Assembly: GCA_017540385.1 (NCBI GenBank)
Contig: JAFYBD010000096.1
Span: 1-33,748 of the forward strand
Reading direction: 5' to 3'
DNA from: Lentisphaeria bacterium
GTDB taxonomy: Bacteria > Verrucomicrobiota > Lentisphaeria > Victivallales > UBA1829
Length of the DNA stretch: 33,748 bases
The notes under the pieces are model-generated. The model was given only the letters and a program-made list of their open reading frames with translations. It was not told the origin of the DNA and searched no databases. Shown piece after piece: positions 17,321-20,307 of this stretch. Both the position numbers and the translations under genes were made by a program. Positions within the stretch are counted from its first letter, which is position 1; the number at the start of each line of letters is the position of its first letter.

Positions 17321-17407
17321 GTCAGCCTTGGAAGGCCGCGAGGGATTCTTCGACGCGGGCGAGCTTGTCCTTCAGGTCGGCGAGCTGGGGCTTCACGTTC
17401 TCGACGA
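17321..17407 (-). repeat. displaced copy of the valS 3' terminus (att-like direct repeat, left)
   Basis: 87 bp matching 20221-20307 with 4 mismatches. The 59-bp core 17331-17389 is identical. It encodes ...VENVKPQLADLKDKLARVEESLAAFQG* with no valS body upstream. Confidence 0.85.
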
Positions 17408-17487
17408 AAAACAGTCGGTTTTTGTCTCTATGCGTTCGCGTCCCGCGTTCAGGTATAAGCAAATATCGTTTGTGTATATAAACGATA

Positions 17488-19200
17488 TTACTCCTGTGCT
17501 CGAACAAGAGCCAAACGAAATCCTACATCGGGCTCTCCGCTGTAGGAGAAGGCATTAGAGCGATTCGACAAGTTGCAACTACCATTAGCTGTACGATAAG
17601 AACCACCACGGATTACTTTTTTAGAACCTCCTGTAGCGGGTTTGTCGCCCTCTGTGTGATTTCTGAAACTCTCTATGTAATCATCCATACACCATTCTCC
17701 AACATTCCCAAGCATATCAAACAGACCTAACTCATTTGGGGCTTTTGTTCCAACCTGGTGTGTAATTAGATTTGAATTGGCTGAGAACCAAGCAATTTCT
17801 TCAAGCTTGTCACTTCCACTATATTTGTATCCTTTGCTCAGTGCCCCTCCACGTGCAGCATATTCCCATTGGGCATCCGTAGGGAGAGAAAACACATATC
17901 CCTCGGGACGTGTACCTTTTGTCAATGTGTTCAGTGTCTTGCAAAACTCTTGAGCATCGTTCCATGAAATGCCTGATACTGGTGTATTCTTTTTGCTTGA
18001 ATTGGTCCCCATCACGGCATCGCGCAGACCTTGAGTAACTTCAGTTATACCAATATAATATTTTTGATTGATATTTACATTATGACTTCTAAGCTTTATG
18101 TCATAGGCTGTATCAAATGAGTCGATCATTGTAAATGAGCCGGGTTGAACAGATGCCACAATTATTTTTTCATCTTTTACAGAGATTGTGAGCAGATTTT
18201 TCTCGTTAAAAGATATTGAGTTTAACAATGCCCCATAAAAAATCCTCTGTTGATAACTCCCTATTTCTTCTTTTTGTTTTTTTAGTTCCGCCATAGTTTT
18301 TTCTGCATTAGACCAATCCTTTTCTTCTATCTGTTTCTCTATTTCTTTTTTCAATGAATCGGTTCGGTTAGATGATTTCTTTTCTAATGCTTCACACTGT
18401 TTAGGATCAAGTTTAGAAAGAACAGTGAGACAGATTTTAAGTACAAAAGAATCAGAATAATCCGCAGCTATTTCTCCAATCGCTGCGTATGATTTGCATA
18501 TATTCGAAATAGATTTCTGACATGTCGCCTTTGCTTCCTTAAAATCAGTCGCATCCAATAAATTATCTATCTGTATTCCTGTATTCTTTATGTCGTTTAA
18601 TAGTGCCGCTCCTTTTTCTTGCCATGCCTTTTCTCTCCGCAAAGAATAATCTGCATTGATGAAAATAGAGAGAGGTCCTTTTATGAAGTCATTTTCAAAA
18701 TCTAAAACAGCTTGGCGCAAAGAAGCATTGTCTTCTATCCATTTTGCGTTTTGTTCAGCAATTACACTTTGTTGCTGTATTTGTGCAATGATTCTTTCCT
18801 TAGTTTTGTCATCAGTTGCACTAAGGCTTTGCTGAAAAAGAGAACTGATTGTGTTCAATGCTTTTCTCATTGCCTGAGTATGTTCGCCGAATGAGTGTTT
18901 CGGGTCATATTTGGCCGCAATGATCTTTTCAGCTCTGTTTTTTAGGGTGACTTCAGTCTTGCGTAAATCTTTCAGCTGATCGTCAACAGAAATATTGGAT
19001 TTCACTTGTACTTTTTTCTCTTCTGTTTTTATAGGTTGAATGGGTGTTTCATTTTTCTTGTTATTGGAATTGTTTGCCTCGCCTTGAATGTTCTGAAACT
19101 GTTTTAATTTTTCAAGATCCTCTTGAGCTTTTTTGTGTCCGCCCTTTGCTGCTTTTTCCAAATATATCATGCCCGTTTCAAAATCATCTTTAACAAACAT
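17488..19200 (-). CDS. Sel1-like repeat, helical region, and C-terminal FGE-sulfatase (SUMF1/DUF323) domain protein
   Basis: 570 aa. N-terminus YLEKAAKGGHKKAQEDL is Sel1-like. The C-terminus has GISWNDAQEFC, LPTDAQWEYAARGG, NELGLFDMLGNVGEWC, VIRGGSY and VGFRLA. It has one Cys after RGGSY, where catalytic FGEs as I recall them have a Cys pair (CHxSYC). Confidence 0.8.
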   Translation of the reverse strand: MFVKDDFETGMIYLEKAAKGGHKKAQEDLEKLKQFQNIQGEANNSNNKKNETPIQPIKTEEKKVQVKSNISVDDQLKDLRKTEVTLKNRAEKIIAAKYDPKHSFGEHTQAMRKALNTISSLFQQSLSATDDKTKERIIAQIQQQSVIAEQNAKWIEDNASLRQAVLDFENDFIKGPLSIFINADYSLRREKAWQEKGAALLNDIKNTGIQIDNLLDATDFKEAKATCQKSISNICKSYAAIGEIAADYSDSFVLKICLTVLSKLDPKQCEALEKKSSNRTDSLKKEIEKQIEEKDWSNAEKTMAELKKQKEEIGSYQQRIFYGALLNSISFNEKNLLTISVKDEKIIVASVQPGSFTMIDSFDTAYDIKLRSHNVNINQKYYIGITEVTQGLRDAVMGTNSSKKNTPVSGISWNDAQEFCKTLNTLTKGTRPEGYVFSLPTDAQWEYAARGGALSKGYKYSGSDKLEEIAWFSANSNLITHQVGTKAPNELGLFDMLGNVGEWCMDDYIESFRNHTEGDKPATGGSKKVIRGGSYRTANGSCNLSNRSNAFSYSGEPDVGFRLALVRAQE

Positions 19201-19227
19201 ATATTCCTTAGCTTTTTCATAATTCTT

Positions 19228-19311
19228 TTAAGGACTGTCGCCACAACCTGTGAGGGACATTGAAATGCAAGTTGCGGCTGCAATGAAGGCGAGAGAAAGT
19301 CTTTTTTTCAT
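19228..19311 (-). other. orphaned lipoprotein signal-peptide mini-ORF, in frame with the 17488-19200 gene
   Basis: My hand translation gives MKKRLSLAFIAAATCISMSLTGCGDSP-TAA(19228-19230)-KNYEKAKEY-ATG(19200). The frame is unbroken apart from the single stop. LTGC is a lipobox. Confidence 0.7.
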
Positions 19312-20156
19312 GTCTAACTCCTTGTGTTTGGCTTGTTCTTATAGAACATGCCTATTTGTTGTTTATAGAAGGGGGGGGATTTGTTGTCATAATCATCAGA
19401 CAGATTAATCTTGTCATACAACAAGAATAATGTGCGCACATGGACTTGCTCTGGCTCGTTTATCAGAGATGGCAAAACAAAACCAAACCGCGAATAAAAC
19501 TGCGATTGATTTGATTGCCGTCATCTGGACGAAAAGCATTTGCCGGACAAACGGATTACCAGTTGTAGCTGGGTGAAGACTGTTTGGACGAACGGACAGG
19601 AACATAGCGGCCTCGAGTTGGAGGAGTTTTATTTCCTGCGCACGAGACAACGTCGAGATAAAAAAAGCCGGACGAATCCCCGTGCGCACATCTGTAGGTC
19701 CCGCCAAGAACCTGCCCAAGAAACGCAAGAGAAACGCCCAGCAAAATACAAAGACACAAAGGTCCTTTGCTGGTATATTTCTTTTCTTGGGCAAGAAGAC
19801 AGATTGAAACTTGGCGGGTTTACAGATGCTTTTTGCTGAAATAACCGTTAAAAAGAGCGCGGAAAACAGATTTCGTAAGGGGAAAACCGTTTTCAAAACA
19901 CAATTTACACCCTGTTCCGAGAAATTCAAGCTTTTTTCTGGCTTTTTTCGGAAAAACTATGACATTGAGGAAAAAGAAAGGACGCGTTGCGTCACGCTTC
20001 GCTGGGGGCGCGCAGATGCGCGCCTCGGTAGCCCTCGCTCACGCTCGGCGACTCTTTTACATAAACGCGAAACGCGAACAATAGAGGAATGTGAGGACGG
20101 TGGGATGAGGATTATCCACCTCTTTTTCGGGGACGCACTACGGAAAAAGTCCTAAA

Positions 20157-20199
20157 CAAAAAAGCTCTCTCCGCGCGAACGGAGGGAGCCAGTTTTTTT
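20157..20199. terminator. bidirectional intrinsic terminator downstream of valS
   Basis: GCTCTCTCCG-cgcgaa-CGGAGGGAGC is flanked by A6 and T7. In minus-strand RNA it has one C-A mismatch, then U6. In plus-strand RNA it is fully paired with one G-U pair, then U7. Confidence 0.7.
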
Positions 20200-20220
20200 G
20201 AGGTTAGCCGAAGTGGAAGG

Positions 20221-20307
20221 GTCAGCCCTTGAAGGCCGCGAGGGATTCTTCGACGCGGGCGAGCTTGTCCTTCAGGTCGGCGAGCTGGGTCTTCACGTCC
20301 TCGACGA
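20221..20307 (-). repeat. valS 3' terminus in place (att-like direct repeat, right)
   Basis: Matches 17321-17407. Contiguous with the full valS reading frame. Confidence 0.85.

Follow-up and report, generated by a model that had tools for sequence, protein, structure and literature searches.

Locus and features

The window analyzed here is the whole 33,748-nucleotide stretch. The host is an uncultured member of the Lentisphaeria/Victivallales from rumen or gut. The subject is a 2.8-kb islet (17408-20207) that sits at the 3' end of valS, the gene for valyl-tRNA synthetase, between two copies of the valS end. All position numbers are window coordinates. L labels (L001 and so on) denote retrieved relative loci or contigs, and P0002 and P0003 are homologous proteins. 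From left to right, the locus contains the following features.

17233-17270, minus strand: native valS terminator, now behind the islet (terminator scan; stem 17241-17259 plus T-run); it stands directly after valS in the empty-site contigs.
17308-17407, minus strand: distal (left) repeat copy, attR-like; its left part is element-derived (VENVKPQ, two non-synonymous changes), and the displaced native end of valS makes up its right part (...AAFQG*, TGA at 17322-17324).
17408-17455, minus strand: incomplete module that retains only its 3' part and faces outward, to the distal repeat; its sequence is also conserved at the distal end of a sister-species islet.
17488-19311, minus strand: cargo lipoprotein gene with a C-terminal FGE-sulfatase domain (Pfam PF03781, E = 7.8e-37), broken by an in-frame TAA at 19228-19230.
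19650-19840, no strand assigned: conserved non-coding block with an imperfect hairpin of ~145 nt (~19688-19832); fold z-scores are -5.7 and -6.3 on the two strands; the conserved backbone ends and the variable cargo begins here.
19979-20094, plus strand: full structured module, a ~110-nt repeat (nhmmer profile), with its 3' end outward, towards valS.
20164-20189, minus strand: element-borne intrinsic terminator, now serving valS (terminator scan); the same hairpin stands behind valS in L021 and L022 (alignment A2) but is missing where the window's own species is empty.
20208-20307, minus strand: proximal (right) repeat copy, attL-like; the valS side is native and the stop-codon side (...AAFKG*, TGA at 20222-20224) is element-derived; empty alleles share its left variants, not its right ones.
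20222-22930, minus strand: valS, intact, 902 aa, with the last codons supplied by the islet; homologues carry the Pfam domains tRNA-synt_1, Anticodon_1, and Val_tRNA-synt_C.

Repeats bracketing the islet

A repeat search of the window retrieved the two copies as a direct repeat pair of 100 nt with 91% identity. Between 17321-17407 and 20221-20307 they differ at 4 of 87 positions. Within this span they share an identical core of 59 nt (17331-17389 and 20231-20289). The original prediction, made from the sequence alone, had given the same mismatch count and the same core, and both were reproduced exactly. It had also allowed that the repeat might be common and unrelated to valS. A sensitive self-BLAST found no further copy inside the window.

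The proximal copy terminates the intact valS ORF (open reading frame), as had been claimed for the working end of the gene. The C-terminus of the window ValS is ...VEDVKTQLADLKDKLARVEESLAAFKG*. Exact look-up of this protein, as 902 aa and as 886 aa, returned no record. The distal copy reads ...VENVKPQLADLKDKLARVEESLAAFQG* in translation and has no valS body, in agreement with the earlier description. The GC-rich terminator noted behind it was recovered as a hairpin with a T-run on the minus strand. The terminator behind the proximal copy (20164-20189) is an addition to that description.

Beyond the stop codon, the sequences flanking the two copies are unrelated, and each copy has a different terminator. 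Because the copies differ at 4 of 87 positions and have unrelated flanks and different terminators, the repeats are not a target-site duplication. The differences and the unrelated flanks indicate instead that the copies are the two products of a reciprocal exchange between the chromosome and a homologous sequence borne by an element. The valS C-terminus in the window is chimeric, and the 61-aa ORF over the distal copy is spurious.

Occupied, empty, and differently occupied alleles

Strains of the window's species were found by exact look-up of the RHH antitoxin that is encoded left of the islet. They are 97-99% identical at the nucleotide level and fall into three allele states. The empty state is present in L084, L085 (from the NCBI metagenome-assembled genome [MAG] GCA_029005995.1), L089, L090, and L091. 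There, valS has a single repeat copy and runs straight into the flank found at 17407->15000 in the window. The islet with the FGE-domain gene is present in the window, L001, and L092. A different insert of 1.45 kb is present in L083, L086, L087, and L088.

The empty alleles show which copy is native (alignment A3). On the valS side they carry the variants GAGGAC and AGACC, as in the proximal copy. Downstream they carry the variants of the distal copy (CCAAGGCTGACGCC, ...AAFQG*). An empty site in relatives had been suggested as a check on the insertion, and in all five contigs valS is followed directly by the 17233-17270 terminator. This pattern indicates that the distal copy is the displaced native end and that the proximal copy is an element-supplied surrogate end. 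The native valS of the window's species thus ends in QG*, and the KG* end and the 20164-20189 terminator arrived with the insert.

The occupied arrangement was retrieved from other assemblies. L001 (ENA metagenome scaffold, ERZ28653461) is collinear with window 15818-20829, is 99.8% identical over 5 kb, and contains the whole occupied site. L002 (Logan contig, SRR31077516) is 100% identical over 17360-19921. It contains the cargo gene and the distal junction and ends short of the valS-side copy. L092 contains the distal part of the same islet. An assembly chimera had been named as a possible objection to the original prediction. Since the arrangement recurs in independent assemblies (L001 and L002), a chimera is excluded.

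The RHH antitoxin gene (16938-17150), the ParE gene (16688-16951), and a PMT_2 glycosyltransferase gene are present in empty strains and therefore belong to the native flank. The toxin-antitoxin pair was considered as islet cargo and was ruled out on this ground. The ParE toxin gene (minus strand) carries a GAA>TAA change at 16913-16915 (AARELRK > AAR*LRK) in the window and L001. L083, L084, and L092 have an unbroken copy. The nonsense codon arises from the same base change as the one that inactivates the islet cargo gene.

In the 1.45-kb insert (8431-9916 in L083; also in L086, L087, and L088), a DUF4268 gene is accompanied by a promoter-like site and a single structured module. The insertion point falls within the native valS terminator, at the equivalent of window 17235-17253, and imperfect 19-bp direct repeats (CGAGCCGGGGGCGTTYTTT) lie on either side of the insert. 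A DUF4268 cassette that is 84% identical and has two modules recurs in a different genomic context (L113 and L114).

The window contains a second hypervariable region at about 10200-14100, between rpmJ and hisG. Its content is strain specific (L083-L092), and its G+C content dips to 48-54%. It contains MNT/HepT, RelB/YafQ, DUF3791/DUF3990, RhuM, and several ORFs without assigned identity. No structured modules were detected in it.

Sister-species islet and shared backbone

The window ValS protein is 96% identical to ValS of Lentisphaeria/Victivallales MAGs. Two MAGs at this identity were retrieved, L021 (RUG555) and L022 (Tb.RUG.336). L021 is empty at the site and contains valS, the terminator, and a convergent esterase gene. 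L022 contains a 3.2-kb islet between two ~155-bp copies of the valS end plus terminator, followed by the same esterase gene. The L022 islet sequence was also present in metagenome records L093 and L094. Its cargo differs from that of the window: one gene encodes a Sel1-repeat protein of 420 aa and another a secreted protein of 303 aa. Of the 80 valS loci retrieved, from Lentisphaeria and other groups, only L022 has a second valS terminus, and it has no integrase.

The window and L022 islets have ~550 bp beside valS in common (window 19656-20207), together with 48 bp at the distal end (17408-17455). In both, the valS homology begins at the same nucleotide. Identity between the two islets is 95% in the valS end, 74% from the stop codon to the terminator, and 79% in the spacer and ~110-nt module. 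It is 55% between the module and the hairpin block and 93% in the 190-nt block itself (19650-19840). Beyond the block it is ~33%, and the sequences are unrelated. Together the islets make up a small family in which the backbone is common and the cargo varies.

The surrogate end of the window (...AAFKG* plus terminator) agrees with what is native in the sister species (the valS end of L021, the distal copy of L022) and not with the native end of its own species. The valS genes of the two species are 92.4% identical and share many identical tracts of 50-68 nt along their whole length. On the simplest reading, the element would have picked up its valS mimic from the sister lineage before it reached the window's species.

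The hairpin block adjoins a possible promoter. An Rfam search (E <= 1 over 16500-21000) returned only a chance miRNA match and assigned neither the hairpin nor the module to a known RNA family. The motif CGCGNNNCGCGRAC occurs in the whole window only at 17434-17447 (minus strand) and 20066-20079 (plus strand). With the nhmmer profile, the module is found in the window nowhere beyond the two islet ends. It is also inverted at both ends of the L022 islet. In unrelated contexts it lies 3' of the cargo ORF, as in the FGE homologues of L095 and L096 and in the DUF4268 cassette of L083 and L113/L114.

The module hairpins contain compensatory changes. Counted on a hand-specified structure, 85.5% of cells are paired versus 26-55% in slid controls; RNAalifold gave one short helix, with the variable stems misaligned. 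All 10 module copies that have bases at the columns concerned show a G-T pair, an indication that a single strand is the folded one. The module pattern gave six matches in viral contigs, all at chance level by module profile score. The hairpin pattern gave no match in viral contigs, and the metagenome scan matched only the L022-type islet.

L021 contains six modules in both orientations within 1.9 kb at the contig end (12188-13999). They surround a small low-G+C gene (222 aa; GIY-YIG/T5orf172-like by eye), and L022 has no insert there. L094 matches L022 at 99.9% identity as far as CCTCGGT, midway through a module, and beyond this point the two sequences part. Elsewhere in the window, a short G+C-rich hairpin repeat (TTCCGTAGTGCCGTGCTGCGCGACGGCACGGGG) is present in two intergenic copies (7505-7540 and 7603-7640) and has the look of a repetitive extragenic palindromic (REP) element. 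In L095, 25 nt of this repeat recur unchanged downstream of the FGE cassette. ARAGORN called a 95-nt tRNA-Arg(acg) nearby (7765-7859), inside a long ORF-like region (7574-9283); this call may be a false positive.

Composition and cargo gene

The G+C content between the repeats is 40.7% overall and 38.9% in the cargo part. It drops locally to 34-45% and is 59-63% in the 10 kb on each side. The segment is as AT-rich as the original prediction had it. The cargo gene has a G+C content of 38% and a third-position value (GC3) of 0.32, versus a host GC3 of ~0.88. The islet DNA is plainly foreign in composition and probably of foreign origin.

The cargo gene is the sole substantial gene of the islet. 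It encodes a signal peptide and a lipobox (MKKRLSLAFIAAATCISMSLTGCGDSP), and the in-frame TAA sits immediately past the lipobox. Two intact homologues were retrieved, P0002 (607 aa, 86% identical) and P0003 (601 aa, 59% identical). Both read ...CGDSPEKNYEKA at this position. Because these homologues have GAA, the window cargo carries a GAA>TAA nonsense mutation. The stop codon is also present in two other assemblies and so is not a sequencing error. Judged from its predicted sequence, the cargo is a putative secreted lipoprotein of the FGE-sulfatase/lectin type whose gene has become a pseudogene. In the other ~900 bp (19312-20207) there is no conserved reading frame; the ORFs there have no Pfam match and are not kept in frame relative to L022.

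The FGE-sulfatase/C-type-lectin fold is a common target of diversity-generating retroelements. This reading of the C-terminus was rejected. A comparison of 17201-20330 with the whole window found no template repeat and, apart from the valS repeat, no part of this interval in a second copy, and the scanned ORFs contained no reverse-transcriptase domain.

Recombinase search and class of element

Neither the islet ORFs nor the other scanned ORFs of the 33.7-kb window were found to contain an integrase, transposase, or excisionase domain. This agrees with the absence of a recombinase claimed at the outset. An integrase-encoding island or prophage remnant was rejected, since the scanned ORFs of 17408-20207 and its flanks contain no recombinase domain. 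An integron cassette or a cluster of attC sites lacking an integron integrase (CALIN) was rejected as well. A regular-expression search of 17300-20310 on both strands found no pair of RYYYAAC and GTTRRRY, and no integrase is present.

A pair of DUF1670 genes near the L094 islet was considered as the missing recombinase and was rejected. It is a separate, multicopy element resembling an insertion sequence (IS), with its own terminal inverted repeats and with unrelated flanks that are free of modules. The unit consists of two adjacent DUF1670 (HTH) genes in 1,855 bp (L103-L112; in L094 at ~511-2376, which is 3905-5770 in reverse-complement coordinates). Copies in at least six different flanks share 99-100% identity, and most assemblies of the unit are contigs of ~2 kb. 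Its terminal inverted repeats are approximately AGGGCATYTGTCC. The unit behaves like a multicopy insertion sequence, and its transposase would be a DUF1670 protein. The literature searched contained no mention of DUF1670. Directly past this element, L094 contains three tandem repeats of ~35 nt at 402-507 (GCGACGGGGATAGCCCGTCG hairpins).

Cis-mobilizable elements (CIMEs) have lost their integration and transfer genes and kept attL and attR (PMC6323972). The valS islet has attL- and attR-like repeats, and the five empty alleles are the attB hybrid of the two copies that would be expected. The islet contains no genes for integration, excision, or conjugation; its ORFs show the FGE-sulfatase domain only. 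The original prediction had proposed a foreign element in valS, either decayed or CIME-like. The insertion, the surrogate end, and the lack of a recombinase stand. The site-specific, CIME part of the claim is left without a cognate integrase-bearing element. Membership in the CIMEs is not established, and the islet plausibly behaves in a similar way. A literature search for valS as attB returned nothing relevant. To our knowledge, valS is not among the described integration targets.

Mechanism and alternatives

We consider it likely that 17408-20207 is a small non-autonomous integrative islet, gained by one reciprocal crossover in the valS core and now decaying. A circular element with a short mimic of the valS 3' end would have recombined, Campbell fashion, with the last ~87 bp of the host valS. 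The crossover would fall inside the identical 59-bp core. The attL-like product would run from the native valS body to the element-supplied ...AAFKG* and the element-supplied terminator. The attR-like product would run from an untranslated, element-derived stub to the displaced native ...AAFQG* and the native terminator. The predicted attB is GAGGACGTGAAGACC...core...CCAAGGCTGACGCC, and the predicted circle junction, attP, is CGACTGTTTTTCGTCGAGAAC...core...CAAGGGCTGACCCTTCC. The reconstructed circle would join the module, valS mimic, terminator, inverted module, and hairpin, and may resemble an attP region with arms. Both window junctions lie in the terminal core despite the many 50-68-nt tracts shared by the two valS genes, a position that would be expected if the incoming DNA carried only a short terminal mimic.

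Movement would need either a recombinase from elsewhere that acts on the islet ends, as for a CIME, or host homologous recombination. We give a trans-acting site-specific integrase and RecA roughly equal weight. The conserved boundaries, the conserved structured flanks, and the 19-bp imperfect repeat of the DUF4268 cassette point to a trans-acting recombinase. The lack of any integrase found, the long repeats, and variant patterns unlike those of one fixed crossover point to RecA. The circular intermediate, the origin of the mimic in the sister lineage, and the identity of the enzyme are parts of the scheme that we infer.

Several observations weigh against the proposed integrative islet. The 80 valS loci, the pattern scans of metagenomes and viral contigs, and the scanned window ORFs yielded no autonomous partner that targets valS. 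A BLAST of the islet against plasmids and phages returned nothing relevant; the only match was a distant FGE-domain match in a Haliscomenobacter plasmid. The distal copy of L092 is native type over its full length, and the window and L001 have element-type variants in its left part. Both window copies read GAAGAA, and all nine native-type alleles of the species read GAGGAA. These two patterns require gene conversion, heteroduplex repair, or independent crossovers, and they are no less compatible with homologous recombination than with a tyrosine integrase. A precise deletion mediated by the repeats would give the same empty allele, and the polarity of gain rests on parsimony and composition. 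Excision of the islet as a circle is likewise something that we infer.

The islet may never have had a dedicated recombinase; insertion and spread by RecA-dependent homologous recombination alone is a possible but less probable account. A circle or linear fragment with an 87-155-bp mimic would recombine with valS in a Campbell-type event, and whole islets would later be exchanged within the species through flanking homology. RecA-dependent recombination has a minimal length below 59 bp, so the identical core is long enough. Repeat length also tracks local homology: the repeats span 87-100 bp in the window species, with its two different terminators, and ~155 bp in L022, with its matching pair. 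The patterns of L092 versus the window and L001, together with the shared non-native variant, suggest long heteroduplex or conversion tracts, and an integrase was found nowhere searched. However, this account leaves unexplained the conserved boundary of the valS homology, the inverted structured repeats that flank it across the islets of two species, and the strong conservation of the hairpin block. The DUF4268 cassette repeat, at 19 bp and imperfect, is short for RecA, and the element would still need a source for its valS mimic. In an unlikely alternative with the logic of an integron, a resident backbone (surrogate valS end, inverted module, promoter, and hairpin) would take up exchangeable low-G+C cassettes, each ending in a module that is the recombination site of a putative recombinase. 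The cargo differs while the backbone is kept, and the switch points lie right after the hairpin block on one side and inside the module on the other. L094 and L022 begin to diverge at CCTCGGT, also within a module. In every context found (L095, L096, L022, L083, L113/L114, and the T5orf172 gene of L021), the module lies on the coding strand 3' of the cargo ORF. The six modules within 1.9 kb of L021, the compensatory changes in the module hairpins, and the G-T pair in 10/10 copies would also fit. Yet neither an integron integrase nor any other recombinase adjoins a module copy, and the attC consensus (RYYYAAC...GTTRRRY) is absent. The module could simply be a REP-like 3'-untranslated-region or terminator element that moves along with these genes. 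With only two backbone sequences available, the conserved junctions represent very few independent events, and the microhomology seen at the window junction would also fit illegitimate recombination. It is equally improbable that the structured repeat and hairpin are recombination sites, oriT-like transfer sites, or both, of an undescribed cassette-exchange system that works without a recombinase or with one supplied in trans. Such a platform at the valS end of this Victivallales clade would swap low-G+C genes for secreted proteins, each closed by the same structured repeat, and would share the logic of integrons but none of their parts.

Reversed polarity, with the islet ancestral in the clade and the empty alleles made by precise deletion between the copies, is more doubtful still. 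Recombination of one copy with the other would give exactly the hybrid allele of the empty contigs. The backbone has diverged about as much as valS (93% identity in the hairpin block, 92.4% in valS), so the islets are old. On the other side, all nine native-type alleles read GAGGAA versus GAAGAA in both window copies, and the cargo composition is strongly foreign. The proximal copy has the sister-type end and terminator and the distal copy the own-species type, for which one acquisition is simpler than ancestral heterogeneity with repeated loss. An artefact, or an ordinary transposon insertion with a target-site duplication, is effectively refuted. The window is a metagenome-assembled contig and inverted repeats lie at both islet ends, which might suggest either. 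But assemblies made independently from other samples have the same junctions. Duplication at insertion did not generate the repeat copies, since these differ from each other and are flanked by unrelated sequence. A transposon or IS insertion was rejected on these grounds; no transposase was found, and repeats of 87-155 bp far exceed known target-site duplications.

Comparison with known systems

The islet resembles the CIMEs of Streptococcus (CIME19258 and CIMEL3catR3; related to ICESt1/ICESt3, at the fda 3' end). These are also small islands at the 3' end of a housekeeping protein-coding gene. They have att-type direct repeats that include the gene end, lack integration and transfer genes, and show tandem or variable content at one site. 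Unlike them, the valS islet has no cognate integrase found from an integrative and conjugative or integrative and mobilizable element. Its repeats are 87-155 bp and its variants do not reflect one fixed crossover. Its host is an uncultured member of the Lentisphaeria, and its target is valS.

Cassettes resembling the staphylococcal cassette chromosome (SCC) and pseudo-SCC elements lack ccr and lie at the 3' end of rlmH (orfX) in staphylococci. SCC core repeats are ~15-18 bp, and the Ccr enzymes are serine recombinases. As at valS, recombinase-less variable cargo lies at the 3' end of a conserved gene between direct repeats that contain the gene terminus, as one state of a polymorphic hot spot. 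SCC repeats are short and have a known Ccr, whereas the valS islet has no known recombinase and has a conserved non-coding backbone.

Classical islands at tRNA, transfer-messenger RNA, or other gene 3' ends, made by tyrosine integrases, share the surrogate 3' end, the displaced native end as a distal repeat, and the foreign composition. The valS islet differs in that no integrase adjoins either att-like site, it is 2.8 kb long, and its single cargo gene is broken. Integron cassettes and CALINs share an ORF with a structured, imperfect palindrome at its 3' side, cargo that is unknown or secreted, arrays of elements (L021), and nearby toxin-antitoxin genes. In contrast, the valS islet has no attC core consensus, no IntI, and a different structured sequence. 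It lies between duplicated gene termini, an arrangement that integrons do not produce. The architecture is familiar. What is new is the host phylum, valS as a target, and an islet that is nearly all cis-acting non-coding backbone with one exchangeable cargo gene.

Significance

The locus is a population-level example from a poorly studied gut and rumen phylum. Empty, occupied, and differently occupied alleles are present for an islet that has no integrase and changes the terminus of an essential aminoacyl-tRNA synthetase gene. Islets of this type can be almost wholly cis-acting non-coding DNA plus one swappable cargo gene. It may be an ordinary decaying genomic islet, mainly of annotation value for its chimeric valS C-terminus, spurious 61-aa ORF, and cargo pseudogene. 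If the hairpin and structured repeats are instead recombination or transfer sites, it would represent a new route for the movement of single genes between Victivallales genomes.

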